A DNA stretch of 63,946 nucleotides, filler included, from Neolecta irregularis DAH-3 (Eukaryota), in assembly GCA_001929475.1 (NCBI GenBank). It is 8 parts of 8 records of this genome, joined end to end, with 100 filler letters (N's around TTAATTAATTAA, not from the genome) between each part and the next. Parts side by side here need not be neighbours in the genome. Positions count along the whole stretch, not along the records: positions 1 to 23,814 come from LXFE01003415.1; positions 23,915 to 27,122 come from LXFE01003431.1; positions 27,223 to 30,113 come from LXFE01000375.1; positions 30,214 to 31,629 come from LXFE01003439.1; positions 31,730 to 37,778 come from LXFE01000376.1; positions 37,879 to 49,483 come from LXFE01000377.1; positions 49,584 to 61,300 come from LXFE01003445.1; 1 more part is not named here. The stretch is one strand, 5' to 3'. The position numbers were made by a program, and so were the translations under genes. Each line of letters begins with the position of its first letter. Position 1 is the first letter of the stretch. Below are positions 1,549-60,141 of this stretch, one piece after another. The notes beneath the pieces are model-generated. The model saw only the letters and a list, made by a program, of their open reading frames with translations, was not told the origin of the DNA and searched no databases.

Positions 1549-3311
1549 ATGCTCCACCAGGTACCCAACTCTAATTGTACGCTGTCGAAACCGCCGCAGA
1601 TCGCACCGGCACAATTATACGAGACAGAAAGCGGCCGGTATGTGTTTTGCATGACTGCTAGAGCTCACCCACCAGACTTTTCCACGCCGGACGAATTGCC
1701 ATCTGCACAGGCATCTTGATCTTGTTCTGCCGCTAATACTCAGTCGGACTTCCCGCTCGAGGAAAAACGCACATCTCTGTCTCGCTCTGTCGGTATCTAC
1801 GATGGTATCGTCCGCGTTTCCGCGCTTCCCTGTATGACATTCCAGGCTCGGTGTCAAAACTGCAGTCTTCCATCTCGGCGACTATCGACGGGTCGTGTTA
1901 GAAGGCCAAGAATTACCTCCAGACTTCTTCTTCGTAAACACATCTGAGTCAACTACCAAACTCCGTGAAAATATCCGTGACCTATGCAGAAACGACATGA
2001 AAAAGTTTTATGAACAAGATAATGGACAAGTGGCCATTTACGATGCCGTAAATCCATCCGTCAAGGGACGCAAAAATCTAGTCAATTTCTTTCAAGCACA
2101 TAATGCCCAGGTTACCTTTTCTTCTTTTTTGTAAACTTGATAATTTACCAGGTTCTCTTCATCGAGTCGATTTGCGATAACGAGAAAATTATCGAAGCTA
2201 ATGTCCTCAGTGTCAAAATTTCATCACCAGATGTATATCTTTCTCTATTTTGGCGTCTGATTCGGCAAAGTATGTTGGTTGGCAACCTAAAGATGCGGTC
2301 AAAGATTACCTGCAACGGATTAATAACAAGATTCCTTATTTTGAGACAATCAAGGAGCCTGAATTGAATTATGTAAAGGTATACATCTTTATTTTGGTGT
2401 TTGCCAACTGTTTGTAGATAATTAATGTCAATGAACGGATGATTGTAAATAACCACCAAGCTGGATATCTTTGGGTAATTAATTCCTTGGTTGGGACGCG
2501 GTTACCCAATAGTCACGTATCGTTTTTTACTTGATGAATTTACATACTCAATATCGCAAACTCTACTTTGCGAGAGCAGGTAATTCTGAGGAGGAAAGCT
2601 CGTATAAAGCGGATACGCCACTAGACCTCCAGGGTCAGGAGTTTTCCCGTAGGTTAATGGCAACTCTGGTTGCGCACAGAAAAAAGGAACGACAAGATGC
2701 TTTATCCCAAGGCGACAATTCAGACGAACGAAGCCTTTCTGTTAGTATTTCTTTGTTGCTCCCAGTTGATTCTTAGATTTGGACATCTCCTAGAATAAAA
2801 AGCGTCCAAACAGCAGACGCTCTTAAAGAACAGGGATATAAAGTGCGCCAACGGCCGCAGTTAATGCCACTTAATCCCGGGGTACTGGAAATGATGACTC
2901 GCGAACAAGTCCGTGAAAAGTACCCTGAAGAAGTCGAGAAACATAAAAAGGACCCGTATCATCATCGTTTTCCCCGAGCCGAAGTAATTGCAATCATCAT
3001 CATCAAACCTGACAAATAGAGTTATCATGATGTTGCGGTTCGTCTTGAACCCGTGATTCTAGAAATGGAACGATCGTACGATGATTTACTGATAATTGCA
3101 CATGAAAGTGTATTGAGAGTATTATATGCATATTTGATGGGTGTCCCTGCAGATGTAATTACTATTCCCCAGATTAGCAAATTTTCGACTGACCAAGATA
3201 ATCTAGTCCATCCCGCAACTTGAATTTCCCCGAAATCAAATCATTGAAGTTATTCCGAACGCTTATCAAAATCAAGTGAAACATATATACATTGAAGGAG
3301 TCGACCCATGA
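1549..3311 (+). CDS. 6-phosphofructo-2-kinase/fructose-2,6-bisphosphatase family protein, YLR345W-like (about 12 exons)
   Basis: Spliced reading APAQLYETESGRLFHAGRIAICTVGLPARGKT (P-loop), QVAIYDAVN, SRIVFYLMNLH, HRFPRAESYHDV, IIAHESVLR; includes the GC-AG intron 1711-1743. Confidence 0.9.
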
Positions 3312-3361
3312 ATTCTCATTTGTATAGTCCAGTTACTTTTTATCTTTTTTGTTTTGCTTAA

Positions 3362-4374
3362 TTAATAATCGTCACGATGATGACGGTGTCGACTGCTTTT
3401 TTGTTGTTGTCTGGCTTCAGGAGAGTAATCTCTTTTGCGTTCGCGATGTTGTCGATGTGGGTCCTCTTGACGGGATGATTGATAGTAATCTTGGGATCTT
3501 GACTGTTTTTTCTCTCGAGTGTCGTCGTCTCGGGGTCGTTTCTCTCTATTTCCCTCGTCCCTGTGCCTTCTCTCTCGGCTATCGTCTCTATGCCTTCCCA
3601 CTCGGCTGTCACCATGGTGCATTCTCCCTCGATCGTCGTCCTTGTGTATTCTCTCCCGACTGTCATCTCGGTATCTTCTTCCTCGAGTGTCGTCCATATA
3701 CCTTCTGTCCTGATTGTCGTCGTCCCTTCTGCGTGAGCGTCTTTCTTTCTCGTCCCGTCGGGAATATTCAAGACCGCCTAATCCACCTCGAGTTCCATCT
3801 TGCCGTTCCGTCAATTCAGACTCGTCGATATTTTGTATGCGGTACCTGTGAAGTCCTCTACTTGTGATCAGTCATCTTGACGTCAACAGAATTACCCATG
3901 AAACCCCAATCCTTGGTTATCTTCTTCCTTCAACGTTTCATTTTCTAGGTCATCGTCTTTTTCTGTAGTCTTTATAGCTTTTGCAATTTCCTCTTGATCC
4001 ACGTTCCCTTCTTTCTTCCGGGTAACTTTAAACCCTCTACGAAATCAGTTTTGAGGGTCGCGAAATATGGATACAATGCTTCAGCGAGCGCATCTTCTTC
4101 CGCCTCCTTAATCTTTCGGATTTCTTCTCTTCGGATTTCTTCCTTGGAAAGATTGCCATCTTTTTTTTTATTAAACCATTCTAAATCCTTGCCTTTTTGC
4201 CAGCGTCCCATGGGTGCTTTGAGCTAGTCTCATCAACATTCGATAAACACAACTGGGGAATACCGAATGACCCAGGTAATTCTCACGATGTTTATCTTCT
4301 TTAATATCATCCCATTTGAATAATCCTTGGCCGCCGCGGTTCCCTCCCCGAACAGGCCCTTGTCGGAGATCCAT
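3362..4374 (-). CDS. MMTAG2/C1orf35-like protein (MMtag domain plus R/D/E/H-rich tail)
   Basis: [45 protein letters not shown] is the MMtag signature; 3 GT-AG introns. Confidence 0.88.
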
Positions 4375-4453
4375 TTGGTGGGTTGTAGTCAAAAGTCTCG
4401 CCAACTCGTGATGCAAAGATGTTTGTCTGCACCTCTCTACTTACAAACATGCT

Positions 4454-13563: not shown

Positions 13564-16435
13564 TTATCTCTGTGTCTCTCCCATTTCTTCACGTTTCTCG
13601 CATTTGTCTTCTTGCATGAATATATCTTCGTTATCATGTTGCACAGACATCTGTGCAATCTGCTCCTCGAAAAAATCTCGTTCAAGTTTGGTATGGTATC
13701 CAAGCGCTTTCATTCCACTAGGATATCGACGAACGTTGTATCCTTCGATTACTGCTCTCAAAGCATGCTCTTGAGGCTAAATCCTGTAAACTTGGTCGCA
13801 AAATATTTGCGCTTACCAAAGCATCATCAATGTCAGCTTCAACATCCAGCCCTGAAAGCCAATCTTCTCTCAAATCAGGCCGGCAATGCAAATATATAGA
13901 GGTGATTACTCGCATATTGCTTGACCTCCATTTCCGTCCACAGTAAGGGATTTGACCTTTAGTAATTTTGAGAACATATAACCGCAAGTCATCTTGTGCA
14001 ACTTTCAAGGGCTTTCTGAGGATTTGCTGGTAAAGGGTTAGCCAAAAGCCTTTTGGGATAAAGGGATACCCAGGATTTGTACTGGACAAGGATCAGATTA
14101 CGATGTGCCTTTTTTTTCACCAACTTTTGCAAAATACGAAGAAAATTGATCGATGTAAAGAATAGCCGAGATGAGTATTCGGTAATGAGAGTTTGGTCCT
14201 CATCGGTAGTGGATGGAGTGATGGCGATACCACCATTTGGTTTGAGGAGCTCTGGTTCAGATTGTTGTGGATTAATTGGAGAGTGACAATTCTGTGAATG
14301 ATTGCTACAAACCTGAAAAAAACTGTTGGTCAGTATAATCTTTGGAAATGGGTGATTACTTGGACTCTTTCATCTCGCATGTTTCTATAATCGAAGTCGA
14401 CAAGTCTTGAAGACCAAAGACTTTAAGTAACAGTAAAGGACATCTTGAATCAACAAGAAGTTGGCTTAAGAACTCAAATTTGAGAACATCTCGTGATTAG
14501 CCTCAGTCGAATAATTTTGCAAACGTGAAACTCGAAACCACTTCAAGAGAAGGAGGATAATCCCAGATATTGCTTTCATTGTAACTTCTCTTGTCCGAAT
14601 GTCATCAATTTCATCCAACGTCAAGCGTCCTTGGCTTTCTCCGCCTTCTTCGGCATCTATGTGATCAGATGAAGCACTCCTCATAAGTAGATACCTTCTT
14701 GAATTGGGCTCAATTGAGGAACATTGACTGCTGCCAAAAGCACTTTCAGCAAGACCACAACACAACTTTGCAAATGCGGAAGACTCGACTTCTGCAAACT
14801 TAAAAAGAAAAAGCTGAGAGTTGACGCACATAAGTTTCTTCAACTATGCGTAGCTTTATTGCTTCAGGGGAGTCGTCCTTATTCTCCGATTCATCGTCCA
14901 CAGGATCAATCCATCCTCTTTCAGTTTTCAGAAAGATATCTTGCTCTTTCCAAAGTTGAAAAGTGGCCAGTGACATATTGAGGCGACTATGAAACAGCTC
15001 TCCGGCTTCTTTGATACTAAATGGAATCGATTCATTGATTTCGTCGGTGATTGGAAATAAAAACGGCATATTCTGGTCAGTTTGGAAACTTTGTTTCTTG
15101 AGTTTCGGCGAGTTAGAGGGAGAGGGTGCAGCTGACGGCATAGGTGTAGCAAGATAGGTATTATTCAGGAGAGGCAGTTCTTTGGGTCGTGAAGCATAAT
15201 CAGTATAGGATGGCGTAATAGTGGTTGCGTCAAAGTCGATAGGTAGACAAGGGGGTGGGGGTTGACAGGACGGATATTTTGAAATGACTTCTTGGCGATA
15301 AATGTGATAATCGAGAGGGGATGCGGTTATGATGTCTTTGGGAAGTTCCTGAGGCAGACCTGCTCGTCGCCGTGCATACTCTTTAGTCTTTAAAAGTTCT
15401 GTGCGCCCACCGAGCATGGCGAGAATGGTCTTCCATAATACCAGGAATATCTGTAAAATGAGGGAGAGTGGGATATAATGCTTGCCTGTCGAACTGGATA
15501 ATCTGTCCCCGACTTCCATCGTAATATGCCCACCATTTCTATAAAGTATGGGAGTATTGCAGGCTGTAACGCATCTGGCAGCATCAGCAAACTGGAGCAT
15601 CTATATGTGTACACAATCCATCTCGAAAACTTTGGTCTGTCCTGAGTACTTCGAGCATAAAGTACATAACGGTAAGGTGCAAGACCATTTCTAGTCGGCA
15701 CGAGCTACGCTTCTGGGAAGCTTCTTGAGAGAAATCGTCTTCTTCTGTAGCACTATGGTAAGGGTCTATACATGGTAGAGTAGTTCGATACCTTTCCCAG
15801 AAGATTTCGCATGTGTTTCTAAAGGACTGATAAGTCTTGTAAAAAACGGATCGACTGTGAAAATGTCTAGCGTTCTCCGTGATCCAATGAAACTGATGCT
15901 CTGGTGCCGTTGACTCGCCAAACACGCCTGAGACCTAAATATATGCCCTGCAGCCAGAATCTGTACCACCGACGACATATAACAGAAGCATGCCGGCATG
16001 GATTCTATCTGCCTGTTCTGACGACTGCAACTGTTGCAAGAGATCGTCGATGTAGCTGGAGCGGGTGTCTATGGAGCTCTTTGACCAGACTAGCGTGTTG
16101 GGATGTGTAGGAAAGGGGTGAGTACCTCCATATCTGCCTTCGTATTCCTGCTTTGCTTCCAAGAGGATCTCGTTGTCTCCATAGCTGAACCATTCTTGCA
16201 GTTCGGCCTTGAGGCTGTCGGTGTCCTCGTACTTGTAGGCGTAAAGAGGCAGCTGTCCGTTCAGCGCCTAGGTTGTTGCACCTCGGGCTACCTTTGGCCG
16301 CGGAGTCTGGGCGACGAGTCTCCGCAGCTGGCCCAGCGTGAGCGAGTCGCGGAGTGTGTCTGGGTCGCCAGCAGCATCGAACAGCGGGGCATTTGCATTC
16401 TGGATCACAGCCCGCAGGCCGTTGGTGCCGTTCAT
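13564..16435 (-). CDS. FAR11: STRIPAK subunit Far11/STRIP (N1221-like)
   Basis: [91 protein letters not shown]; about 12 introns including GC-AG 15485-15451. Confidence 0.93.
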
Positions 16436-16513
16436 GGATGGCTGTGTCACGTGATGGCACGCTGGTGGTGGAGCGAGGTGGTGAGCAGCGGGGCGGCGGG
16501 ACAGCGTCTGCCC

Positions 16514-16606
16514 ATGCTGCACAACCAGGGCTACTATACGCCCGACACCTGGACCAGGAATACCGCGCAGCAGCAGCAGCAGCAGGCAGTGCATGCCGCA
16601 CATGCA

Positions 16607-16640
<34 letters not shown>

Positions 16641-17603
16641 AGCCTGGCGCGGCGGACGACAAAAAGATCTATGCGTGGATCGGCGAGCTCGTGGCGGGCG
16701 GGCAAAAGGAAACTGCGCTGCTCGAGCTGAGCAAGAAGCGCGAACACTTTGCGGATCTGGCGCTGGTGCTGTGGAACTCGTTTGGCAGGCTTTGCGGGTG
16801 GCTGCTGCTGACTGTTGCAGGCGTCATGACGAGTCTGCTGCAGGAAATCCTCAGTGTGTATCCGCTGCTCAGCCCGCCCAATCTCGGCGCACACTCCAGC
16901 AACCGCGTCTGCAACGCCCTTGCCCTGCTGCAGTGCGTCGCCTCCCATCCAGAAACACGCAGCGCCTTCCTCAACGGTAGACGCCCCCGCCTTTTCTTTT
17001 CTTTTTCCCCCGCTGACCACCCGCAAGCCCACATCCCGCTCTTTCTCTATCCGTTCCTCAACACTACCTCCAAAACTAGACCCTTTGAGTATCTCCGTCT
17101 CACCTCTCTCGGCGTCATCGGCGCCCTCGTCAAAAACGACAGCGCAGAAGTCATCTCCTTCCTTCTTTCCACAGAAATAATCCCTCTCTGTCTTCGAATC
17201 ATGGAGACCGGATCAGAGCTTTCCAAGACCGTCGCCATCTTTATCGTGCAGAAAATACTCCTAGACGACATGGGCTTGGAGTATATATGTGCTACCTACG
17301 AACGATTCTATGCCGTCGGAACAGTCCTGAGCACCATGGTCCAGCAACTGATTCAAAACCAGGCCGTTAGGCTCTTAAAACATGTCGTTCGATGCTACCT
17401 CCGACTGAGCGACAACCCCAGGTATATTATTGTAGAATATCCTCGATTCATATTTTAGAGCCCGAGAAGCATTACGTCAATGTCTGCCAGAACCACTCAG
17501 AGACGCCACGTTCAGTCAGGTTCTCAAGGATGACATTGGAACAAAACGCTGCCTCGCCCAATTACTCTTGAATCTATCTGACCAGGTGGTGAACGAGAAT
17601 TAG
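16514..17603 (+). CDS. CAF40: CCR4-NOT subunit Rcd1/Caf40/CNOT9
   Basis: [50 protein letters not shown]; 3 introns (first is GC-AG, 16785-16820); N-terminal polyQ. Confidence 0.96.
16568..16642 (+). repeat. CAG/CAA microsatellite encoding polyglutamine in Caf40
   Basis: Two CAG-rich tracts encoding Q6 and Q11. Confidence 0.9.
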
Positions 17604-20015: not shown

Positions 20016-20980
20016 TTACCCAACCAACTGAAAATTACCACTCAATATCATTTTTTTCAGCTCCGAGATCTGTGCTTGCTGAGCAGCTCCCAAGCTCGCA
20101 ATTTGCTCCTCTTTTAATCCCATGATTTGCGTGACTACTTCCTGACCCAAGTTAATTTTTCACAAATGAATAAGAAATACCCTCGACAGCTGTGGCAAAG
20201 CTGCAGGTTGAGCTTGTTGTTGCTGCTGAACTGGTTGCTGGGGAGGTTGTTGAGATGTTTGACCGACACTCTTTACAACAGACTGTAACACATTGGGATG
20301 AACGAGATTCATCATTAATAAGGCTTGGAACACGGCATAAGCAAGCTGCGGATTCGTGCATAAAAATTGGGAAGCTTGATCTGGGGACACCATAGCAATC
20401 TGTTTTAGCTGGGCAATAATTTCAATGAGTTGGGGAGGAGAAAATGAAGAAAGAGTCCGCTTAATTGCATCCATTGCAGTTTCCCCGGGATTAGGAGCGG
20501 TTCCGGGTGGCTGTTGTAACTGTGGTTGTTTCTGCTGAGGGGCTTCACGGGCTGACTTTGCAGTTTCATTATCAGCATAATCAACTCGTAGCTGTCGGCC
20601 ATTTATATCATAGTTGTTGAGATTTCGAACGGCAGATGCGGCGGTTTCAGGATCTGGGTCATGTTAGGTGGGATCTGTTAGAAGCATACCGTGATATTCG
20701 CAGAACCCGTAGCCTTTGCCTTTTCCAGTATCTCGGTCAAATAAAAGCCTAAAGATGTTAGCATTTGTCTTTTAACATGCTCTGAACCGAAAATTAGCTA
20801 CGGGGCCAACCTCTGCGATTTAATAAACACTGCACTCGTTTCAAGGATACCATACCGTTAAAAATATCAGTCAATTGTTGCTCAGTTAAATCATAGGGAA
20901 TGTTGCCAACTAAAAATCCATATTAGATTCCAGACATAGAGGGAGATTTCTGTACCGAAAACTACTTTTAGCCGTGACAT
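20016..20980 (-). CDS. RNA15: Cleavage/polyadenylation factor Rna15/CstF-64
   Basis: RRM VVFVGNIPYD..FDRDTGKGKGYGFCEY..SAVRNLN; hinge NPQLAYAVFQALLMM; C-terminal domain; 5 introns. Confidence 0.93.
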
Positions 20981-23814: not shown

Positions 23815-23914
23815 NNNNNNNNNNNNNNNNNNNNNNNNNNNNNNNNNNNNNNNNNNNNTTAATTAATTAANNNNNNNNNNNNNNNNNNNNNNNNNNNNNN
23901 NNNNNNNNNNNNNN
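23815..23914. other. Artificial contig linker (N44-TTAATTAATTAA-N44); also at 27123-27222, 30114-30213, 31630-31729, 37779-37878, 49484-49583 and 61301-61400
   Basis: Identical 100-nt spacer with stops in all six frames, repeated 7 times. Confidence 0.97.
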
Positions 23915-24202: not shown

Positions 24203-26551
24203 TCACTTAAAGTCTACATCATACCACCAATTCTTCAAGCATTGAGTTGCTTCAATCGTATCCTCACTCATCCTATTCTTTTGTTGTGTAATCAGCAGCT
24301 TTGCAAGACTGAATATGCGCTCACATTCAGCTGCCATAGCTGGGATGGAGAGTAGGTCGTACGCCATATGGGTGAGCTGTGGGTATTCAGCTTCATGATC
24401 TCTCCACCATTGTAGAATATTATCAACTCGTTTCGGGACAAGTGCAATGTAGGATTCATATTCATCAATAGAGGGAGTTGGTTCGTAGTAATCGGCTGGA
24501 GTGAGAAAGGCTTCAAAGGCATCTAATTCGTGTGTGGTAGCTGTACTGGTTTGGGTTTGACGAGGTTCAATATCGCTGCTTTTCCAATTCTCTTCATAGA
24601 ATACTTGCACGGCCTTTTTGGCTGACTCAACCCATTCCTGATTGGTTGCCCAACATCGTTCTATATATCGCCAGCTGTGGCCTGGGTTGAGTACTAATGA
24701 GGAGATGTAAACAGGAGACTCATCAGTCAGATTGTAATACTTGTCCAGCTTCTGCCAAGCATTGTTGATAGCCATTCGGAAGTGTTTACAACAGTCTTCA
24801 GAGAGGTCTGTTGGAGGCAGCGATAGAGTAGGAGGAAGAGTATGTTTTCGATGTTGTCTTGTGGGTGTTGAGTTGGTGACATCAGGAGTAGTGGAATAAT
24901 CGCGATATCTTATCTTGAGATCTTCAAGATGTTCAAGGATGAATTCAATGTTAGGTAGAACCTCCCAAATGGCTCCATGATGGCCTTGTTCAGCTCTGCT
25001 TTGGTGACGCATTGTAGAATCATAAAACGGCTTCAACATCTCTGCTATCTCAGTAAGAAGCAACCAATCATCTTGACTCAAATGATCTTCCCTAGGTACT
25101 CGCTTGTATACTTCTCTCTCAACCTCACATCTGGCAATGAAACTATCAATTTCATGTCTCTTCTGCAGCGCTCGTGTAAGCATTTTGTAGGTTGAGTTCC
25201 ACCGTGTATCATTATCCTGCAGAACTTGTAGATTCTTTGTATCATGGTTCAACATAGATGTGGAGTCTTCCACCTCGAGGTTTGATATCTTGATGAATAG
25301 CTCTCTACGCTGAGGAGTTCGCCTTATAAAAACGACAATATTATGCAGTTTCCCAATAGGCCCGTGTCGTCTCCAAAGTTCAAGAGTCTCTCGTTCCCGT
25401 CCAAGTGTAGTGTTTGTATCTAGCTCCACCTCAAATGTGTCAGCATTCTTCCCAAATAAGAGTGCTTTGGCAGTGAGATTCAATACATGTCCCCAACAAC
25501 GTAATCTTCGTTCTTTAATCTCTCGAGATGTAACTTGAGGGTTGAGGTATTGAAGGAAGGTACGAAGGCAGGTATCATTGGACTTGGCATTGTCGATATT
25601 GAAGAACCCCACACGTGCCCAAGTTATCTCATAATCAATAGAAATTTGAATTAGGAGTTGGGCCATATTCTCGCCTGAATGAGATCCTTGGAGGCGACGC
25701 ATTCCTATTAATCGTGTTTTGACAATGTGTGATTGGTCCAAGTAGTGAGCGACTACTGCCATAATAGTTAGTTGGTTAGGTGAGGTCCAAAGGTCAAATG
25801 ACAGGTGGATTCGACTGAGAGATTTCTTTATCTCTACTTTAATTTCTTCTGAAGTAGTTTGAAATTCCTTCACTAACCAGTTCCGTATGGTATCACCACT
25901 TTGGGGAAGGAGGCTACCAATATCAGGTGACGCGATCGCCAAGAGCTTCCTGAATAGCTTATTTTCAACGGCAGTAGTAGATACATTTGCATCAACCATC
26001 CATCTCAATAAAACTGACTTGAAGCTCTCTGCTCTTAATTTCACAATCGGGTTACAAGTTATGGCTCTTCTTTGCATATCAAGCACACTTGTTGGGTGAC
26101 GTTTTGATGGCGGATTCTGCTCCTTATCCTTCCCATGTTCATAGAGTTGATGTTTGTTTTGTAAGTGGCTGATGGAATTGGATGTAGCCTCTGCTGCATA
26201 TAGTGTGAACAAATGCCTTGTATCACATCTATCACAGCTCCAAAAAGTCTTATCTTTCTTTCCTGATGTGTTGATTTCAAGGAGATAGGTCCCGTATTTC
26301 TTAATCCATGAAGTTCGTTTCCGTTTTTTATGTAAGTGATCTTCTTTGATAAACTTCCTTTGGCCAATCAAAATGTGAGGTAATTTGTTAAATGTGCTAT
26401 TCTCGGTAAGGTTTGACAGGTCGATATTTGATTGTTCGGCAATTGAGGTTGCTTGGTGGAGGTTTGAAAGGGCATTTATATTCAAGGAGCTGGATGGGGA
26501 GGATATGTAGGCTTGACAGGATGTCACAGAGTCGGTATCATCATCAACCAT
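24203..26551 (-). CDS. hAT transposase (about 782 aa, uninterrupted)
   Basis: BED-like finger (WSCDRC..HLQNKH), SFDLWTS, IDNAKSND, RCWGHVLNL, TRWNSTY, dimerisation domain WWRDHEAEYPQL..LSIPAMAAECERIFS. Confidence 0.93.
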   Translation of the reverse strand: MVDDDTDSVTSCQAYISSPSSSLNINALSNLHQATSIAEQSNIDLSNLTENSTFNKLPHILIGQRKFIKEDHLHKKRKRTSWIKKYGTYLLEINTSGKKDKTFWSCDRCDTRHLFTLYAAEATSNSISHLQNKHQLYEHGKDKEQNPPSKRHPTSVLDMQRRAITCNPIVKLRAESFKSVLLRWMVDANVSTTAVENKLFRKLLAIASPDIGSLLPQSGDTIRNWLVKEFQTTSEEIKVEIKKSLSRIHLSFDLWTSPNQLTIMAVVAHYLDQSHIVKTRLIGMRRLQGSHSGENMAQLLIQISIDYEITWARVGFFNIDNAKSNDTCLRTFLQYLNPQVTSREIKERRLRCWGHVLNLTAKALLFGKNADTFEVELDTNTTLGRERETLELWRRHGPIGKLHNIVVFIRRTPQRRELFIKISNLEVEDSTSMLNHDTKNLQVLQDNDTRWNSTYKMLTRALQKRHEIDSFIARCEVEREVYKRVPREDHLSQDDWLLLTEIAEMLKPFYDSTMRHQSRAEQGHHGAIWEVLPNIEFILEHLEDLKIRYRDYSTTPDVTNSTPTRQHRKHTLPPTLSLPPTDLSEDCCKHFRMAINNAWQKLDKYYNLTDESPVYISSLVLNPGHSWRYIERCWATNQEWVESAKKAVQVFYEENWKSSDIEPRQTQTSTATTHELDAFEAFLTPADYYEPTPSIDEYESYIALVPKRVDNILQWWRDHEAEYPQLTHMAYDLLSIPAMAAECERIFSLAKLLITQQKNRMSEDTIEATQCLKNWWYDVDFK

Positions 26552-27222
26552 TGTGATAATAATGCTGATGATTGCTGTAGGGCTTAAATAATAACAGTGA
26601 AGCTCATTGGTGATAATGAGAGGTGTGGTAATAACCTCCCACTGACCCGCCCTACCTGTCTGTCCCACCCACCCACCTTTCCCATCTGTTGCACTTGCGC
26701 ACCCAATTCTCCCTTCCTGGCCACTCACCTTCCCCATCTGTCCCACCTGCCTGCCCGCCCTTCCCGTCTGCCCTACTCGAGCGCCTGACTCTCCTGTCCC
26801 GCCTGCCCGCCTTTCCAGTCCAACCCACTCGCCTGCCCTCACTTCCCATCCGTTCGTCCCACCCATCCGCCTTTCCAGTCTGTCCCACTGGCGTACCCGA
26901 CTCTCCCATCCCGGCAGCCCGCCTTTGCAGTCCGTCCCACCCGACTGCCCTCACTTCCTGTCCCCACCCTCCCGCCTTTCCCTTATGTCCTACTCACGCA
27001 CCCGCCTCTCCCGTCCAAGCCGCCTGCCTCTCCTATCCCAGCTTGCCCAACTCACCCGTCCCGCTGTAAACGTATTTTGCGGTTACGCTTATCAGTGTTA
27101 TGTGAAGTTAACCAAACTTGCTNNNNNNNNNNNNNNNNNNNNNNNNNNNNNNNNNNNNNNNNNNNNTTAATTAATTAANNNNNNNNNNNNNNNNNNNNNN
27201 NNNNNNNNNNNNNNNNNNNNNN

Positions 27223-30023: not shown

Positions 30024-30213
30024 ACGGTCTACAAATCTTTCCGGGTCTATCTACTTGTTTGGATTTTTTTGGTCTCTTGCCTCGGGGGGGGGGGGTTTCA
30101 TTCTTGTTTTTTTNNNNNNNNNNNNNNNNNNNNNNNNNNNNNNNNNNNNNNNNNNNNTTAATTAATTAANNNNNNNNNNNNNNNNNNNNNNNNNNNNNNN
30201 NNNNNNNNNNNNN

Positions 30214-33406: not shown

Positions 33407-34183
33407 TTATACCATTTTGATTCGTCCGTCGAGGACAAACGGGCGGACGTGCTCATACCCAATTAAGAAAATGGAATCTTTTTTCAGTGAGACATCATCG
33501 TTTCTGAAATTAGTATCTCAAGTAGCAAAAGATACCCAAACTTGATATCTCCGCAATTTTCCACGATTTTGCAGAATACCGAGGTCGAGAGATCTGGTTC
33601 ATCGACCATGCTGAGCCCCCCCGCTGAGTCATCTAGTCTCTGGAGTTTTGCCGGGAATTGTCTGAGGAAGCTTGCGTCGAGGTGCATTGAAGAGATTTGA
33701 ATATGACTGATGTCAGTGGATGTTTACGATAAAGGTACCGCCGGAGGTACGCCTGCTCGTTCATCGTCATGTATGCTTTATACTGGGCATTCCGTGTATA
33801 GTGGATAGGGAATTTATCTATCTGCCGTAAATAAACGGTTATGGGGGAGCGTGCCTTGTACAATCTAGTCCGGAGATAACTCCGCAGAATATATTTTATC
33901 CTTTCGACTTCTGTTTGCAGTACAACGAGTCCAATATTATTCTTTCCTTGGTCCATCTCGCGCTCTATGAGTTCGACCTGATGTTAGTAGACTGCAGAGA
34001 TATGTGTACTTGTTGACGTATCTGGTCCATCACGGCGTCTACTTGGACGTCTTTGCCGGGTAGAAGCTCGGGCGTCATTCTCTCTGCGATCCAAGCATTG
34101 TGTACGGTCATTATATCTGACTCTGGTTCAGTTGGAGGTTCTATCAGGTCTTGTTCCATAGAATCATCCATATAATCACTCAT
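33407..34183 (-). CDS. SLD5: GINS subunit Sld5
   Basis: AWIAERMTPELL, LQTEVERIKYILRSYLRTRLYK|IDKF, SMVDEPDL..VF; 4 introns including GC-AG 33854-33822. Confidence 0.93.
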
Positions 34184-34230: not shown

Positions 34231-35543
34231 ATGCCTCCAAAACGTAAAAAAGAAACACCAGAAACCACCCGCAAAAAAGCAAAGAAACCAGATAAAGCGT
34301 TAACTGCGCAAACAATGAACTTGTCCAGATATATCGGAGCCCATGTATCTGCTTCCGGCGGCGTGCAAAACTCTGTGCTTGGTTCAATTCGCATTGGGCA
34401 AGATATTCCGTTATCAAATTAACGCGTCTAGGGCGAATGCATTCGCTTTATTCCTAAAGTCACAGAGGAAATGGGTATCGCCCGCGTTGAAAGATACAGA
34501 TATCGCTCAATTCAAAATACTTGCTAAAGAACACGGGTTTACGATGATACTACCCCATGGATCCTACCTCGTCAACCTCGCCAATCCGCAGGAGGAAATG
34601 AGGGAAAAGAGTTACGCTTGTTTTATCGACGATTTGCGACGCTGCGAAGCGCTTGGAATTAAATATTATAATTTCCAGTGAGTTTTGGTTTGGATTGGAA
34701 TTGATCAGAGTCCGGGGAGTAATGTGAACCGCGAAGAGGGCGTGAAATTTCTTGCGGGGAATCTGAATAGAGCGCACAGGGAGACGTCGAGTGTAGTTCT
34801 TGTTGTCGAGAATATGGTACCGTTGCGGTGGTTCGGGTTAATACTTAGGCTGGCCAAGGGAATATTCTCGGAGGTAAATTCGAGGAATTGCGAGATATAA
34901 TAGCTAATGTTGACGGTTACACTTTGTTGCGTCTCGAGGCTGAAAGATAGACAAGAGCCGGGTTGGTGTGTGTCTCGATACATGCCATATGTTTGCCTTT
35001 GGCTATGATATCGTTTCTCAGTACGACAAGGTGATGTCTGACTTTGACGAAATTGTTGGCAGAAGATATTTGGCGGCGTTTCATTTAAATGATTCCAAAG
35101 CTGCGTGCGGTGATAAGCGGGACCTTCACGCGAATATCGGTATCCGCGTTGGTGATGGGTGTTGACGGGAGCAGGAGTGGGATATATTGGACTGGAACCC
35201 TTTCGCAAACTGATGAATGACGAGCGGTCAATTGGGATTCCCATGATTTTGGAAACGCCTCAAGAAGACGAACAGGTTTGGGCTGATGAAATAAAGTTGT
35301 TGGAAAGTCTAATTGGCAAACAAGCTGATGATCCAACAGTTGTCGCGGTCCGTCATTGTCTTGCTTGACTGACTTTAGAAAGCAAAAGAACTGAGTAAAA
35401 GCGGGTTAAAGGATCGCCAGGCGCAGAAAGTGAAAGCGGACAAGAAGAAAATCCGGTTGTCGCGGTTCGTCATTGTCTTGCTTGACTGAGTTTAGAAGCG
35501 GTTAGATGCCGAGACGACTTCCGAGAATGAAGAATTAAATTGA
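34231..35543 (+). CDS. APN1: AP endonuclease (endonuclease IV family); stop at 35505 or 35543 depending on the last splice
   Basis: [51 protein letters not shown]; includes GC-AG intron 34398-34431. Confidence 0.94.
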
Positions 35544-37755: not shown

Positions 37756-38340
37756 TGATTAACAGATGAATAGATGAANNNNNNNNNNNNNNNNNNNNNN
37801 NNNNNNNNNNNNNNNNNNNNNNTTAATTAATTAANNNNNNNNNNNNNNNNNNNNNNNNNNNNNNNNNNNNNNNNNNNNCTAGGCTCCGCTGCTCTCCGTA
37901 CTCTACTGCTCCTTTCCGCCTATAAAGCCGTGCTCCTCCCGTACCCACCTCGTACTCCCGTCTACGTACCCACCCATCTTCCGCGTGCGCCATGGCAAAC
38001 ATCGGCTTCCGCCCGCGCAGAAGCTCNNNNNNNNNNGATTTGCGCTGCAGCTGCCTGGAACGGCGTGGCGCGCAGGCCAAAGAGGGCAGGCGCAGTGCCG
38101 GAACCGGAACCTGGGCGATCGGCGGGCGGGCGGGCTACTAAAAGCCTCCCGTTGCCCCCGCTTGCAGCCATGACCTGTCTCCCCTGACTCTGGCCGCCTC
38201 CACCACCACAGAACACGTCTGCTTCTCCTAGGCTCCGCTGCTCTCCGTACTCTACTGCTCCTTTCCGCCTATAAAGCCGTGCTCCTCCCGTACTCACCTT
38301 CTACGTACTTCTACGTACCCACCCATCTTCCGCGTGCGCC

Positions 38341-49255: not shown

Positions 49256-49583
49256 CTTTGAATAGAACGTTGGGGAGACAAATATATGTGTCGTGCAAAT
49301 TCTTTTTTGGTGGAAAGGTCCGGGTGGTGGCCGTTTCATCGCCGCTGAGCTTGGGGTTATTTTTCCATTTGACAAGGAATTCTCTGCCAGTGTTCCTAAT
49401 CGACTAGACCAGAGGTCCTTCGGCCGCCTGTCTCTCCTGCCTTGCCCGTCTCTCCCGTTTCGCCCATCCCTCCCGCCCCTCCCNNNNNNNNNNNNNNNNN
49501 NNNNNNNNNNNNNNNNNNNNNNNNNNNTTAATTAATTAANNNNNNNNNNNNNNNNNNNNNNNNNNNNNNNNNNNNNNNNNNNN

Positions 49584-52500
49584 GCTGCCAGCGCCTCACT
49601 CGCAGCGCCGCTGGTGCAGCTGCACCTCGACGTGCACGGCCAGCTGTCCGGCCTCGCACTGCACGCAAATCTGCTCGCACTGCCCCTCCGCGCCCCCGGC
49701 TGCCGCTCCTTCCACGTCTTCTACTACCTGCTCGCCGGCGCTACCCCGCAGGAGCGCCAGTTCCTCGTGCTGCTGCCGCCTCACGAATACGCCTATCTCG
49801 CCCAGTCGGGCGCCTATGCCAACCCCGACCCCGCAAAGGACGACGCCGCAAACGCCGACGACCTCAGAGCCGCCCTCAAGTCAATCGGCATCAAGGGCAA
49901 GAAGCTGCAGAGCATCTACCAGATCCTCTCCGGCATCCTGCTCCTGGGCAACGTCAAGATCGCAAACGGCTTCCTGCAAAACGAAGCCGTCCTCGAAGAA
50001 GTCGCCAGCTTGTTCGAGATCGAGCCGGATCGCTTTGCAAAGTTTCTCCACAATGAGCATGTTCGCGATGCCCTCGCTTTGACAATATACGCAAGTCTGT
50101 GGGGCTGGATCGTCAACCTAGTCAACCTCAAGCTCAAACCCGTCGAAGAAACCCAAGCCGTAGTCTCGGTCCTCGAGGTCCCTGCAGCAAACGGCAGCTT
50201 CTGGAAAGCTTATGCTGGCGAAAGAATTCAAAATGAAGTCTTCAAACATGTCTTTACCAATTCGTGCGGTTTAAATAAAGAAATGATCGACGACGGCCTG
50301 GATATCGGAGGTGACATCAAGATCTCGTCCGAGTGCATCGATCTGCTCGAGGAAATCAAAGCAACTCTTGGCCAGGGTGTCTATTCCGGAAACCCGCTGT
50401 ACAAAGACACTGCTGCTGGCTTTGAAGTCACTCATGCCTGCGGACAGCAAAAATACCTCAGAAGCGAGTTCATCGAGTCTCCCACTTTGTTGCCAGAAAT
50501 AGTAGTTCAGGCGGATGAAGGCTCGCTTTTCCGTGATCTTCCAACCCCAAAATTGCGCTCAACAATGGCCGATGAATCGATACAAGTAGTCATGGACATC
50601 ATTGAATCAGCCCGAATGTGGAATGTCGTATGCCTCGATCGGGGAAATTCGTGGGACGCTGCTTATGTTGGCCAACAAGTCCGGTCGTGGTACCTTTGCG
50701 AATGGATCACACGAAAGCGATTTGCAGATTACACCTGTGAATTTCCCCATGCTGAATTTCAAGATCAGTACGCGCCACTATTACAAGGTAATCTCATGGA
50801 GTCGTACCTTTCCTATCGCGGTTTATCCCGCGGTGATGTCAGCGTCGGACGAGAAAGAGTCTGGATGAACGAATCTAGCTGGACACTGCTCGAGGAAGAA
50901 CTCGACTATATTGTCGGCGATTTCGCAGCTTCAACTTCTAATGCAACCCAAAGTTTGCGACGTCCAGAAACGCTCGGAACAGACTCAAGGAGTGCATATC
51001 TCGGTGCGGCCATGCCTACCCGCAACGCAAGCCGTGAAGGCCTTCTCAGGAATATGGCCGATTACGACAAAACTCCCGCCATGTATGACGACAAAGATGT
51101 CGAGCAAGGCAAGTCAGGCAACGTTGTCCAAGAACTACGGACCTCCTTCTCTCGGAGATTCTGGGTCTTTATCACTTGGTCTTGTACATGGTGGATACCC
51201 GCATTCGTCTTGACTCACATCGGAAGAATGAAGCGGCCCGATGTTCGCATGGCCTGGAGAGAGAAGGTGACGCTGTGTATTTTGATTTTCCTCCTTGACG
51301 CCTTTATTATATTTTACATTGTTTTCTTTGGACCTCTTCTTTGTCCGGAATGGGATAAAGTTTGGAATGCCAAGGAAGTCGGCTATCATCAAGGCGACAA
51401 CGATTTCTGGGTCAGTGTTCGTGGTCAAGTTTACGATATTTCCAAATTTTGGCGTCTTCAACATTCTGATACGAACGCGGAAACAACCGCTAGTAACATG
51501 CAACAATTCGCGGGATTGGATTTAACTCCATACTTTCCAGTGCCATTAACGGTAGGATGTCCTGGACTTGTAAAAGATTCCTCAATATTGTTACAGTTCA
51601 ATGACACAATCATCGATTCTTCCGCAGTTCACAATAGTGGCCCACTTCAACAACCTGTTCAAGCCTCTGCCCTGCACGATATAAACTGGTATCCAAACAC
51701 ATTCTTACCCAAAATGAAAACATTTCAAAAAGGCGACCTCGTCGTCGCAAAAAACGAAATCGAATCCCAAGGTCTGGATAATAACAAATACTGGGCCACC
51801 ATCGATAATCATCTCTACGATCTTTCAGATTACTTTTATACCCAGCAAATGTTTGCTGGTGCCGCTTCATACTCCTTCCTGGACTCTAGTGTCGAATCGT
51901 TATTTAAAAACAACCCTGGTGGCGATATTACAGCCGCGTGGAACAACCCTTCAACGATGAACGAGACTGCGCGTACCAACAACTTCAACTGCATAAAGAA
52001 TGTATTCTCTGCAGGTCGTGTCGATTTCAGAAAGTCTGCTCGTTGCCAAGCAAATAATTACATTCTCCTCGGATTCACCATCCTCCTATGTTCCGTCATT
52101 CTTTCAAAATTCTTGGCAGCACTACAATTTGGCTCCAAGAAGCGCCCCGCAATGCAAGATAAGTTTGTCATCTGCCAAATACCAGCATATACTGAAGGAG
52201 AAGACCAGCTGCGCAAGTCGATTGACTCGCTAACCTCTTTGAAATATCATGACCAGCGAAAGTTGCTTTTTATCGTCTGTGATGGTATGATTACTGGCAG
52301 AGGCAATGATCGGCCTACACCACGAATCGTTCTTGATATTCTTGGAGTTGATCCAAAGATAGAACCTCCCGCTCTGCCATTCAAGGTATCTTGTAATGCT
52401 ACTCGACCTAATTACATAGTCTGTCGCGGAAGGATCGAAACAGCTAAATTATGGCAAGGTTTACTCTGGTCTCTACGAATACGAGGGTCGCGTTATCCCG

Positions 52501-53891
52501 TTCCTAGTAGTTGTCAAAGTGGGCGCAAACGAGAAATTTAAACCCGGCAATCGAGGAAAACGAGACAGTCAAGTTATTGTATTCAACTTTTTAAACCGCC
52601 TGTTGCACAAATCTCCAATGACGCCGCTCGAACTCGAAGTATATCACCAGATCAACAATGTGATCGGAGTCAATCCCGATTTCTACGAGTTTCTCCTGAC
52701 GGTGGACGCCGATACAGAGGTCACTGAAGATTCCCTCAACCAATTGGTGGCTGCTTGTGCAAATGACAAATCCATCATAGGCATTTGCGGTGAAACAAGC
52801 TTGCAAAATGAAGATAATTCCTGGTGGACAATGATTCAGGTATACGAGTATTACATTTCTCACCATCTCGCAAAAGCTTTTGAAAGTCTATTTGGCAGTG
52901 TCACTTGTTTGCCAGGATGGTAAACCTTTCCCCTCACTTCAACTTACCCTTAGTTTTTCAATGTACCGTATCAAGAACGATAGAGGCCATCCCATCATTT
53001 GTTCCAGTAGAATCATTGAAGAGTATGCCGATAACCATGTTGATACATTGCACAAGAAAAATTTACTCTCCCTCGGCGAAGACCGATTCTTGACTACGCT
53101 CATGATGAAACACTTTCCAACGATGAAAATGAAATTCGCACCTGATGCATATGCAAAGACTGCTGCTCCAGAAACTTGGGGGGTATTGTTATCTCAGCGT
53201 CGTCGATGGATCAATTCTACCATCCACAACCTAATGGAACTCTGCACCCTCCAAGAGCTCTGTAGTATTTGTTGCTTCTCGATGCGATTTGTGGTATTGA
53301 TTGACCTTTTTGGAACTTTAACATTACCCGCGACGGTTGTATATCTCGGTTATCTAATTTATAGAGTCTCTTCAGGTGGGGGAAGCTTTCCTTTGATTTC
53401 GGTCATTATGTTGGCAGCAGTATATGGACTCCAGGCTATCATCTTCTTGCTCAGGCGACAGTGGCAACATGTAAATGTTCCAACTTGCATACATTCTAAC
53501 TTTGAGATCGGCTGGATGATTATTTATTTACTTGCGTATCCTGTATATTCATTCGCGTTGCCTGTGTATTCGGTATCCTACTCTCTACACTTGTTCTGAC
53601 AACCAGTTCTGGAAGATGGATGATTTTTCTTGGGGAGACACTCGCCGAACCATTGATGAAAAGGCCGGCAAGAAGCTGGTCGTTCAAGAGGAAGGCGACT
53701 TTGATGATTCGATGATCCCGATGAAAACTTGGGATGAATACAACCACGAACTCTTGAATGAAGATATTAGAGCTGAGAGTGTTGCTTCTGGACAAGCCGG
53801 GACTCATTCTAGAATGTCCAGTCATGCAGAATCGGAAATAGGCTCACCCTCATGGTATGGAGGAGCAAGCTTGAAGCGGTATATGGGATAG
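49584..53891 (+). CDS. Chitin synthase with degenerate myosin-motor-like and cytochrome-b5-like domains (class VII/V type); 5' end lost in gap
   Basis: [12 protein letters not shown] myosin-like segment, [38 protein letters not shown] and QRRRW motifs. Confidence 0.94.
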
Positions 53892-53967
53892 TTGGGAATA
53901 TCCTAAGCAGGCTCTACATTGGAATAATGAGAGGGTGTATTGTTTATTTTTCATGAAATTAAATTCC

Positions 53968-55595: not shown

Positions 55596-55750
55596 ACCGT
55601 TTAGTGATCCGGCTTGGTGGAAATAATAAAAAGTAAAAACTGTTTCATACCGACTCATGATATCTACATGAACACATAAACTCCATTATTGACCTACTAC
55701 AACCACCATAAATCCCAGAGAAATTCTCCCATTATGCTCCTTAAGTAACA

Positions 55751-58700
55751 TCAACGTCGAGCAGCGCTTCCTGAGACCCGGTGGCCCTGCTTGTCTTTCG
55801 TTGTAATCATCTCTCTAGGCTTTTTAAAACACAGAAAATGAGTCTAATTCATCTTAGCAGAAACAAGGAGAGCATGCCTACCGAAGTCGATTTTCTACTG
55901 CTCACAAGAACTTTCTTAACGTTGGCCAACTCCGCTGTCAGGTCTTCGTTCAGAGTGGGCCCAATCTGGTACGCTTGTTCGATAGTCTGGTATATCATCT
56001 GGAGTGTATCTGAAGCCTTTTGAGAGACATAGTAGTTTAGGGTTTGATGGAAGAATTCGACTTCAAGTGTAGCTTGTAACATACCTCCCATTCCGAATGA
56101 AAGGACTTTTCGAAAGCATTGGAGAATCTCGTGAGTCAAGTGTTCTAATAAGAACTGCAAAACACGCTGAACCAAGCTAGGAGTAACAGTGGAAACTTGC
56201 GAGTGGACCAAAACTAGGGAGAATAGTGCTTCAAACACGTACGAGCGAACTTCTAAGACAAATTAATCTTTATTTATAGAGAGCGTTACCAGTCGGTTTA
56301 CCCATTTCCAGCCAATCGACTAATGGCCTTAGTATGCCGGAGCGAACTGTTTCAGCGATAGCAGACATTTTTCTCTTTGTGAATTCGTGAAATAATTTAA
56401 CATCTAGCTGTTGTAGTGAGCTGTTTAGCGTTTTGATGTCGTCTGTCATGCTAATAACCGTAGCATTCTCAAACTGATTAATTAATTTGGGAATAATATT
56501 GTTTTTCAAGAGCGCAATATTGCTTATGGCCAACAGGATACGAGTTTCCTAGAATCGGTTTGATTTCTAGTGAAGACATACCGACTCTGAGATATCAACT
56601 CTACGCTCATCGCCTACGATGGCGAGATCCAATCGACTTGAAGATCGAGGTTCCACTGCATTTGTTGCGAGGGCAAGCTTGTAAACACTCTCAAATGCAA
56701 CGTACAACGAGCCAAGAAACTGTGACTTGAGAAATGCCACCAAGGATGGCGACGGAGGTGCCTAAAGTAAATAATCGTAGTGAATAGTAGACAGGTACCA
56801 CAACTGTATTCAAAGCGGGATGTTTGCTTCCCTCTGCAACTACGACAGCCTTTTGCAGACCGGCTACGACTCGTCTTTCAAACGCATGGAATTTGGCAGG
56901 GAATTCTGTAACGTCCGGATCGTCCTTTGCACGAATCCAATCTTCGAGCAAGCGCGCTTGTTTGGCATCTAGGTGTTTAAAGATATATTCGTCACTGCTT
57001 ATTTTACCTCTTTGCCAAGCTTGACATATGGCTCTGGTGCACCGATCTCTCACCTTGGAAATCATTGACCGATAGAGTTCTATAACATGGGGTGTGGGTT
57101 TAAGCGCAGCAATTTCCATAGCCATATCTGCGAGACTATTGAGCAAGGCGGGAAGAACGATCGTGGCACCAACAACAGAGGCGTGAGGTGGAAGAAACGC
57201 AAATTCAGTAGGCATTGGAACGGAACCTGTTGTCGCTTCCTCTTCCTCCTCCTGAATTGAAGGTATCTCGGCAGTCGGTAAAGCAATAGGTGGATTACAA
57301 AATATCTCACTGATGGTATTCGCGAGAAGAAGTAATAAATCTTCTGCCATCGATTGACACCGAAGCGTCTCTTTTTCCGTCAACTTGTGATGTTTTTTTG
57401 ATCTCGCTTGGGGCCCAAGGGGAAGAGACTATGATATGAGTACGCATCTTTGGGTGACCCACTATTTGAGCTCTGCCTTGTACGAATGTCATGGCTGTTT
57501 TCCAAAAATCGATGGGACCTCGAGCCAAAGACTTTGTGATCTCTCGTACCATTTCTGTAACCGCGTCCCACATGTTATTGATTGGTAAGGGATCAAATTT
57601 TGCAACATTGGATTTTCGAGATGCTAACAAGAGATACGCGGTGACATCTTCATTAGACGGAGTCCTTCGTGTCAAGAGCTTCTGTCGAATCGCTAAACTG
57701 TTAGAGATTACGACTTGAGGGCATACTTTCAATGTTAATTCGATGTTTATTGGTCACATCTTTAATTTTTTGCGTCAGATGGGAATACTGAGCTTGAAGG
57801 AAAAACCAAATAGGATTGTCATTGATGCCCAGTTCCAGGAGTGTTCTATGTGTGAGTGTTTGCGGAAATTCAGGATATACCCAATAATCCTGAGATGTTC
57901 TGCATTGCTTCGTGTAGGATCTCGAAGTCTAGTCCATAAGGTTTCGGTAAAGTTGCCAGTGACACGTTCTACTTCTCCCCAGACTTTTTCAAACACCCGT
58001 CTCTGACTATTGCCGGAAGGAAACCGAGAGACATCTTGCTTGTACTCCTCGAATAACATTTCGCCCTTTTGGTATTCCCGAACAAAAGCTGCGTGATCGT
58101 TCTAGAGGCCGTCAAATAACAAAAGAACTAGGAATAGATATACTTTCGCCGCATGTCCCATTAATGAAGGGGGCATATTAAAAAAGGATTTGTAGCGTTC
58201 AAGGACTGACAAAGCAGCCCGTAGACGATCGGCTTTTGTTTTATTCTCCAAAATCGGCTGAAAAATAAGGTTTGCATTGGCTTTGGCATCTGAAAAATCA
58301 TTAGATAAAGGCACTGAGCGTCTCTAACCGGCTATGATATTCTTAAGCGGACCCACTCCATAATCCTTCTCCCTATTCAAAGTGGCGGCCCGCATTTCGT
58401 TGTAAACAGTATCAATGGTTGTCTTTGCGGTGACAAATCGATCAAAGTTGTTTTCAACAAGACCTCGCAGGGCTTCTGATCGCAGATCGATCGACCTGTT
58501 TAGTATCTCTAATCCTTGCTCTAATTCCAGAAATGTAGAGTCTGAATGAACGTCCCGTAAATAATCTCTCGGGGAGAAGTTCTTGGAAGATATTGTATAT
58601 TTTGCGCCTTCTCGTGTTAACAAAGTGGCCGAAAAAGGGTTGTCAGTACGCAAGTCAAGCTGTTTGTCTACGGGCAAGCCCTTGAGACGGAGAATCCTAA

Positions 58701-58953
58701 CATTTAGCAGAGAACATTGGAATATCGCATGCTCCATCGGACTTTCTATATCGCCCAGAGGATCGGGCTCGTTACTGGACAAAGTCTCACCATCTATTGG
58801 GCCTCCAGCCAAGCCAAGAGGAAAGCCGTTTTTGCGACCGTCGCCGAGATCATTCTGTGCGCTTGTCGGATCCTGCCAAAGATCTGGTTCCAAATTGTTG
58901 ATCCGATAGAATTTGAATAGCGCATTCGCCTGCTCGGGGTCGTGGATGTCCAT
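55751..58953 (-). CDS. SEC5: Exocyst subunit Sec5/EXOC2
   Basis: EPDPLG, SSKNFSP..YLRDVH, LVENNFDRFV.AK.TID, FGMGGMLQATLEVEF; about 12 introns including GC-AG 58732-58697. Confidence 0.93.
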
Positions 58954-59029
58954 CAGTCTGGGACCTATTTGTTGGTGTGGGGTCACGATAGCGATAAGTC
59001 ACGGAAAGATATAAACCATCGCACTCCTC

Positions 59030-60141
59030 ATGGCCGAAGAGATCCCAGACGATTGTTGGAGCCTGGTACACGATGCGCATTGCCACCCAACAGATTCCAT
59101 GGGGTCTATAGAAAAGATATCCGAGATGAAGACTCAGACACTCTGCATTATGGCCACGCACTCCACGGATCAGCAGCTGGTAGCCGAGACAGTTGACCGT
59201 TTTCCCGAGAAAGTAATCGCAAGCTTTGGGCTGCACGTTCGCAATTGCCCGAATTGGTCTTACGAAATAGACACCCGTGGTTTACTCACATGTATTACAT
59301 TGACTCTCCGCCGGAGTCGAAATTAGCGCACTACAACCAAATACTCCAACCTAGTCCCGATGACAAATTCATAGACATGCTGCCTGCTCCAATATCCTTC
59401 CAAGAACACCTTGAAGAGATGAGACGAAATCTCAAGACATACCCATCGGCATTTGTGGGAGAAATTGGGTTGGATCGATCATTTCGAATCCCTCACCCTA
59501 CAGAGATGGGCAGGCATCCGAATCGGGGTGCGTTGACAAATTTCAGAGTAGACATGCAGCATCAAGCACGGATATTGGAGGCACAACTTACTCTTGCAGC
59601 CGAGTTGGATCGGTCTGTGAGCATCCATGGGGTACAGGCACACGGTGTTTTGTTTCAGACAGTGTCGAGCCTATGGAAAGGGTACGAACGGCCATCAAAA
59701 TCGAAGAGGCGGAAACAGAAGCAGCAACGACAGCATGATTTTGGGCAGGAAGATGGCAGAGAGAACATATCAAGAACCGTTCCATACCCCCGACGAATAT
59801 GTCTGCACAGCTATTCAGGGCCTGTTGAGCAAATTCGGATTTGGACGAGCGATTCTGTGCCATGCGAGGTATACTTTTCCTTTTCGACAACGATCAATGA
59901 GCGGAATGCCAGGTGGGCTGCTGTGGTGGAAGCTGTTCCGGCATCCCGGCTACTCGTGGAGAGCGATTGGCACGAGGCAGGTAAGGAGATGGAGAAATTG
60001 GAAGCAGCAGCGGTGCAGGCTCTTGCACAGATGCGCGCATGGCCGGTGCGTGTCGCGCTGCAGCAGCTAGCCACGAACTGGGCGCGGTTTGTTGGCAGTA
60101 CACGCGTTTCACAGTCATCATCCCAAGACCTCGAGGTATAA
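59030..60141 (+). CDS. TatD-family metallohydrolase (Scn1-like)
   Basis: DAHCHP, FGLHPWF (after GC-AG intron 59233-59270), VGEIGLD, SIHGVQAHG, CLHSYSG, LVESD. Confidence 0.92.

Follow-up and report, generated by a model that had tools for sequence, protein, structure and literature searches.

Probable U2-type GC-AG introns of 33-38 nt in Neolecta irregularis DAH-3: a known intron class at a locally raised rate

U2-type GC-AG introns have the consensus AG/GCAAGT, and compensating strength at the other donor positions is a classical property of this class. U12-type introns, which are also a class rich in non-GT-AG termini, are recognised by the donor RTATCCTT and the branch TCCTTAAC. Here we analyse seven segments that start with GC and end with AG in a stretch of 63,946 nucleotides (fillers included) from Neolecta irregularis DAH-3, which we call the window, and compare them to these and other described systems. 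Fungal introns are on average 98.7% GT-AG and about 1% GC-AG (PMC7072748), and the hand-curated annotation of Ganoderma lingzhi contains 1.85% GC-AG introns (PMC11590231); these and the following statements are cited from parts of the respective papers. In Oikopleura dioica and Eurytemora affinis, minor non-canonical sites reach about 10% and GA-AG introns are frequent (PMC7072748). Furthermore, 5' splice sites are weaker in intron-rich species (PMC8476143, citing Irimia, Penny and Roy 2007), and 4202 introns have been counted in 1211 orthologs of N. irregularis compared to 862 in S. pombe (PMC7940399). We found no description of Neolecta splice sites in the published literature; no word beginning with 'intron' or 'splic' occurs in the main text of the genome paper (PMC5309816), whose Supplementary Methods, which we did not cover, may bear on the question.

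We consider it very likely, judging from sequence and homology, that the window is intron-rich nuclear DNA of N. irregularis in which at least five, and probably all seven, of the segments are ordinary U2-type GC-AG introns. Two named proteins of N. irregularis DAH-3 match exons of the window with 100% identity, namely P0121 ('Exocyst complex component 2 [Neolecta irregularis DAH-3]', retrieved with a long SEC5 exon) and P0122 (the named N. irregularis 6-phosphofructo-2-kinase, retrieved with a PFK2 exon). The seven segments had been proposed in an earlier note on this DNA, and all of them lie where that note had placed them, with a GC start, an AG end and a length of 33-38 nt:

1711-1743, plus strand: predicted GC-AG intron, 33 nt, donor GCATCT, phase 1, in PFK2 just upstream of the P-loop VGLPARGKT
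15451-15485, minus strand: predicted GC-AG intron, 35 nt, donor GCAAGC, phase 0, in the N1221 domain of the FAR11/STRIP gene
16785-16820, plus strand: predicted GC-AG intron, 36 nt, donor GCAGGC, phase 1, in frame and stop-free, in the CAF40/Rcd1 gene
33822-33854, minus strand: predicted GC-AG intron, 33 nt, donor GCACGC, phase 0, in frame and stop-free, in the SLD5/GINS4 gene
34398-34431, plus strand: predicted GC-AG intron, 34 nt, donor GCAAGA, phase 2, in the APN1/endonuclease IV gene
58697-58732, minus strand: candidate GC-AG intron, 36 nt, donor GCATGC, phase 2, in frame and stop-free, in the N-terminal, poorly conserved part of SEC5
59233-59270, plus strand: candidate GC-AG intron, 38 nt, donor GCACGT, phase 2, in a TatD-family hydrolase gene

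For PFK2, FAR11, CAF40, SLD5 and APN1, homologs, PDB entries or Pfam domains place the boundaries at an exact residue. We thus regard these five segments as confirmed, by homology, to be introns for which no GT-AG alternative keeps the conserved protein. The proposal that all seven are genuine holds for these five; TatD and SEC5 are only probable.

In PFK2, the segment contains an in-frame stop (TAA), as the earlier note had said. The exact mapping of P0122 to the window has one solution, and this solution uses 1711-1743; the public annotation thus already accepts the GC donor of PFK2. All eight other homologs are contiguous over LFHxGRIxIxxVGLPARGKT (junction ...GRIAICT/VGLPARGKT), the Pfam 6PF2K positions 19-41 come after the intron, and we found no frame-compatible GT-AG alternative to the segment. 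In the same gene, P0122 lacks the last intron (3155-3206, plus strand), and its C-terminus diverges from all homologs.

In FAR11, the Pfam domain N1221 is matched at positions 183-215 in the upstream frame and 209-289 in the downstream frame, with Q 211 and I 212 flanking the junction. The human STRIP1 sequence FPMKKVLLLLWK matches the 12-residue spliced product of the window without a gap, and FPMKKVLLLLWKTVL of human STRIP1 (7k36_I) aligns to the junction. A rival GT-AG intron with the same acceptor (GTTCGA, 44 nt) is disfavoured, as it would remove VRQ. The PDB search with the upstream exon gave a single unrelated match. For APN1, the upstream frame matches PDB chain 10nh_A at residues 33-62 and the downstream frame takes over at residues 64-146, residue 63 coming from the split codon. 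The residues continue over the junction and the boundaries are thus contiguous to the residue; each of the seven GT-AG alternatives takes out conserved residues.

The segments in CAF40 and SLD5 are in frame and free of stops, and the earlier note had allowed that they, like the segment in SEC5, might be kept as coding sequence. For CAF40 and SLD5 this is rejected by the homologs. The 12 amino acids that the CAF40 segment would encode are missing from 11 of 13 aligned homologs, with which a tblastn search of P0012 agrees, and the remaining two (P0003 and P0007) are read-through calls with an insertion of their own at the same site. All eight frame-compatible GT-AG alternatives delete or add conserved residues and disturb the invariant WHSFGVM region. 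The coding score of the segment lies at the 2.1 percentile. As a further observation on CAF40 (16094-17455, plus strand), two of its three introns, the GC-AG intron of 36 nt and a GT-AG intron of 51 nt, are in frame and stop-free, so that the gene reads as a single open reading frame (ORF) of 454 amino acids; metagenome gene calls from further fungi (P0003, P0007) read through in the same way.

For SLD5, a search of 1.84 billion representatives gave 20 matches. Four of them (P0144-P0147), which are spliced or intronless, read RLYK/IDKH or LEKY without a gap, and tblastn of P0144 leaves a gap of 11 amino acids exactly at 33822-33854. Another 11 are read-through fragments with an insertion that opens with V (GTN) directly after the same lysine, among them P0140, a relative from a metagenome contig with 87% identity. 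Two other fungi (P0151 and P0154) open the insertion with A (GCN), a third is ambiguous, and of the last two matches one is also ambiguous and one is unrelated. On this homolog evidence, the SLD5 site is a conserved phase-0 intron position with GC in the window. GC donors may recur at this position, given the alanines of P0151 and P0154. An alignment of yeast SLD5 from the PDB into the segment (VYLRQ vs LYLRQ) was judged coincidental given the wider set of homologs.

These data also bear on the question whether the introns are really GT-AG and the C at position +2 arose by an error of sequencing or assembly. The assembly is broken up into small contigs, and we see nothing direct in favour of an error, which would demand seven independent T-to-C changes, all precisely at +2. 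In addition, the public annotation uses the PFK2 donor, and in SLD5 the homologous site of two other fungi appears to read GCN. We consider this explanation extremely improbable.

For the two remaining genes, the decision between intron and coding sequence is less clear. In TatD, the Pfam domain TatD_DNase is matched at positions 2-69 in one frame and 71-251 in another; an intron is thus required. Removal of the GC-AG candidate would leave GLHPWFTH, and CTTAC lies 8 nt from its 3' end. A rival GT-AG intron at 59292-59326 would give GLHVRNC... and lacks a branch motif close to the 3' end, yet its intrinsic score equals that of the GC-AG option (8.6 vs 8.0), which counts against the latter. Proteins of the TatD family typically conserve G-x-H-P, and GLHV would replace GLHP. 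We conclude that 59233-59270 is probably a GC-AG intron, a preference that rests partly on the G-x-H-P motif. PDB searches with TatD gave no usable alignment.

In SEC5, the segment has +3A and +5G, CTAAA 7 nt from its 3' end, and a coding score at the 0.3 percentile of 9036 exon windows, which is the deepest trough of the 672-nt ORF. The opposing evidence is that the public protein P0121 keeps the 12 amino acids (it contains HAIFQCSLLNVR) and that our searches found no homolog covering 58697-58732. A longer search for relatives returned the organism's own protein alone, and a metagenome scan gave one locus (L001, 48% identity) that covers residues 154-224 only, away from the candidate site. 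The segment is located 28 residues upstream of the first matched position of Pfam Sec5. P0121 also removes two in-frame segments (58608-58649 and 56969-57007, minus strand), both of which score as coding (0.008 and 0.013 per nt, positive values).

It might thus be that the in-frame, stop-free candidates, now mainly SEC5, are coding and unspliced and that TatD uses 59292-59326, which would leave five GC-AG introns. The retention of the SEC5 segment in the public protein, its position outside the Pfam match and the slightly higher score of the TatD GT-AG intron speak for this explanation. However, the SEC5 segment scores as the least coding part of its ORF, the TatD alternative has neither a branch motif near its 3' end nor the proline of GLHP, and for CAF40 and SLD5 a coding insertion is rejected by homologs. 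Furthermore, the public annotation mis-models the C-terminus of PFK2 and is thus no authority for SEC5. We consider this explanation rather unlikely, and 58697-58732 is probably a GC-AG intron.

To place the seven segments among the introns of the window, we used our own gene finder, trained on the window, which combines a periodic Markov coding model with explicit short introns. It returned 26 models with 125 GT-AG introns. These introns are short, with a median of 37 nt, 5th-95th percentiles of 32-62 nt and 79% within 30-41 nt; most measure 32-39 nt, and the density is about 3 per kb of coding sequence. A YTNAY branch motif with its A 6-11 nt from the 3' end is present in 79 of the 125. The GT donors contain little information past GT: 0.32 bits at -1, 0.49 at +3, 0.20 at +4, 0.05 at +5 and 0.37 at +6, with a G at +5 in 37 of 125 donors. 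In PFK2, where ten GT introns are fixed by the exact mapping of P0122 and the continuity of homologs, the donors are GTACCC, GTATGT, GTATCG, GTTACC, GTATAT, GTATAC, GTAATT, GTTAGT, GTAATT and GTAATT, with +5G in two of ten. The degeneracy is measured on this self-trained gene finder and one validated gene within the window, and it agrees with what the earlier note had described; GTTACC and GTACCC are validated by the mapping and the homologs. This resembles the weak 5' consensus of other intron-rich eukaryotes, as Neolecta is intron-dense and has degenerate GT donors; in the window, however, even +5G is essentially uninformative.

Compared to these GT donors, the GC donors appear stronger. They have A at +3 in 7/7 (GT donors: 78/125, p=0.04) and G at +5 in 6/7 (GT donors: 37/125, p=0.005), and G at -1, present in 5/7, is enriched over GT donors. 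The mean number of matches to the U1-complementary CAG/..AAGT is 3.9 of 7 positions compared to 2.8 for GT donors (p=0.03). The claim that the GC donors lack compensation is thus not supported, although it was correctly observed that none of the seven is a perfect GCAAGT. Against a background of 7365 GC..AG segments of 28-45 nt in the window, YTNAY with its A 6-11 nt from the 3' end is found in 6/7 GC-AG introns and 567/7365 background segments (7.7%, P=1.4e-6), and the relaxed motif YTNA in 7/7, where it lies 6-9 nt from the 3' end, compared to 15.4% of the background. By intron-signal score, FAR11 is first and PFK2 second among the 7365 segments.

As a group, the seven segments are thus coherent. 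Several observations, however, weigh against our reading. The signal score fails to separate the other five from the background: only PFK2 and FAR11 stand out by it, and 488 GC..AG segments score at least 4. The compensation is incomplete, with GCAAGT in 0/7, +4A in 2/7 and +6T in 2/7, and with n=7 its statistics may be inflated if sites resembling GCA.G were picked by eye. When alternative donor dinucleotides were allowed in the gene finder, 1-8 introns were called per class, and GC with 6 calls did not exceed AA (8), GA (8), AC (7) or CA (6). Likewise, in-frame segments with low coding score and a branch motif occur for every start dinucleotide (1-8 per class), and splicing of all seven is deduced from protein homology only. 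A low-power scan for hidden in-frame introns within predicted exons found no enrichment of GC (3/651). Among the calls inspected by eye, three GC calls beyond the three that coincide with the earlier note were false, and recurrent non-GT calls (49817-49880, 48706) were artefacts of masked linkers or merged genes.

The comparison of donors also bears on how the introns might be recognised. One explanation would be a permissive regime with altered U1, U6 or Prp8, in which donors hardly matter and GC introns, along with GA and GT-AT introns, are a by-product. It is in line with GT donors that are nearly uninformative past GT (0.05 bits at +5), with the tight intron length and with a branch motif that keeps a short, constant spacing to the 3' end. 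However, the GC donors appear selectively stronger, which argues that donor pairing still matters; the inspected extra GC calls and recurrent non-GT calls were artefacts, and weak donors are a known general trend of intron-rich species (PMC8476143, from the part cited above). We consider a permissive regime very unlikely. Of the proposal of the earlier note, the tight size and the branch motif are supported, whereas an altered U1, U6 or Prp8 is not.

U12-type splicing does not explain the data either. The donor RTATCCTT is present in none of the seven (GCATCT, GCAAGC, GCAGGC, GCACGC, GCAAGA, GCATGC, GCACGT), and of the 14 frequent GTATC donors among the GT introns only one extends to GTATCCTT. 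This one opens a predicted 38-nt intron in a CstF-64-like gene (20813-20850, minus strand) with a U12-type donor word; the other 13 donors of this type do not.

The segments fit U2-type GC-AG introns best. They share with this class the GC...AG termini, the YTNAY branch, apparently stronger +3A, +5G and -1G, and positions that are shared with GT-AG introns of other species. They differ from it in that compensation is partial, without GCAAGT, and in that the introns are only 33-38 nt long. In each of them, a T-to-C difference at +2 is set within a 5' site that is otherwise above average (+3A, +5G, often -1G); each also has the modal intron length and a YTNAY-type branch motif whose distance to the 3' AG is fixed at 6-9 nt. 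We suggest that recognition by U1 and U6 together with the branch-point and 3' splice-site module would remain sufficient, as in classical GC-AG compensation. The introns of SLD5 and CAF40 are at positions common to other fungi, and a close relative has GT at the SLD5 site; they thus look like old introns with a drifted donor. A raised rate of GC-AG introns would also fit the near absence of information past GT in the GT donors of this genome, a feature to be expected of intron-rich species.

The local rate of GC-AG introns is 4-5.5%, i.e. 5-7 of about 125-130 introns, with exact 95% intervals of 1.3-8.7% (5/130) and 2.2-10.8% (7/130), from one window that was picked post hoc, with small n and an approximate denominator. 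With 5/130 the rate exceeds the 1% of other fungi at P=0.010, and with 7/130 it does so at P=0.0004. Compared to the 1.85% of Ganoderma lingzhi, the excess has P=0.011 for 7/130; a point on the other side is that 5/130 is not significantly above that value (P=0.09). It is thus possible that the introns are real and that their number reflects sampling fluctuation and post-hoc selection, with an ordinary genome-wide rate of 1-2%. The few events with their wide intervals, the flagging of this window for looking unusual and the 1.85% already reached in a hand-curated fungal genome (PMC11590231, from the part cited above) all favour such an account, to which we assign somewhat less than an even chance. 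In contrast, the count of seven is hard to reconcile with it at either reference rate, and the seven candidates are spread over three different contigs rather than one locus. In addition, GC-AG introns that are in frame are hard to detect, and more may be hidden; with GC donors allowed, the gene finder (a dynamic programming approach) recovered only three of the seven. We conclude that a local excess over other fungi is suggestive and that a genome-wide excess in N. irregularis is plausible. The earlier note had put the local rate at about 5-6%, compared to the 4-5.5% given here.

A raised share of non-GT introns in a compact genome with short introns resembles the situation in Oikopleura dioica and Eurytemora affinis (PMC7072748, from the part cited above); in the Neolecta window, however, only GC donors were verified and not GA, GG or others. 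The peculiarity is thus one of numbers within a known intron class and amounts to no new mechanism or splicing system.

The window has a G+C content of about 45% and is interrupted by seven artificial linkers with stops in all six frames, each consisting of 44 N, TTAATTAATTAA and 44 N, which makes it a junction of at least eight contigs:

23815-23914, 27123-27222, 30114-30213, 31630-31729, 37779-37878, 49484-49583, 61301-61400: linkers

Neighbouring pieces are not necessarily adjacent in the genome, and the linkers cut several genes, namely the N-terminus of a chitin synthase, a hAT transposase and the C-terminus of Rad21. Two further features are given here:

24206-26950, minus strand: hAT-family ORF of 915 amino acids with a C-terminal dimerisation domain (Pfam E=6e-20)
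49536-53596, plus strand: chitin synthase of class V/VII type, with a myosin head at the N-terminus and also a cytochrome b5 domain; the linker cuts off its start

The hAT ORF occupies most of a 3.2-kb contig and is probably a hAT DNA transposon. An Rfam search of the window gave no matches, and no small nuclear RNA was found within it. The gene finder makes errors: of the 11 true introns of PFK2 it found 9, along with three false ones, it fused neighbouring genes, and it missed TatD and CAF40.

Lastly, the introns described here have consequences for annotation and for the study of splice sites. When the gene finder was run with GT donors only, its models cut into the P-loop of PFK2 and into FAR11 and APN1; gene models of N. 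irregularis that allow only GT would be wrong at the GC-AG sites, and 12 residues of the public SEC5 model are probably spurious. We tentatively extend the finding to the whole genome, which is possible rather than probable: N. irregularis might have 4-5% GC donors in introns of about 35 nt and a 5' splice site that holds almost no information past GT, with no preference for +5G; the introns would be recognised chiefly via length and a branch point 6-11 nt from the AG, and co-evolved changes in U1, U6 or their partners might accompany this. If all this were true genome-wide, Neolecta would be at the extreme of donor degeneracy among fungi. If the share of GC-AG introns and the weak +5G hold genome-wide, the species would be a natural case for the recognition of very short introns with a weak donor, and Neolecta would serve as an early-diverging ascomycete reference for splice-site evolution.

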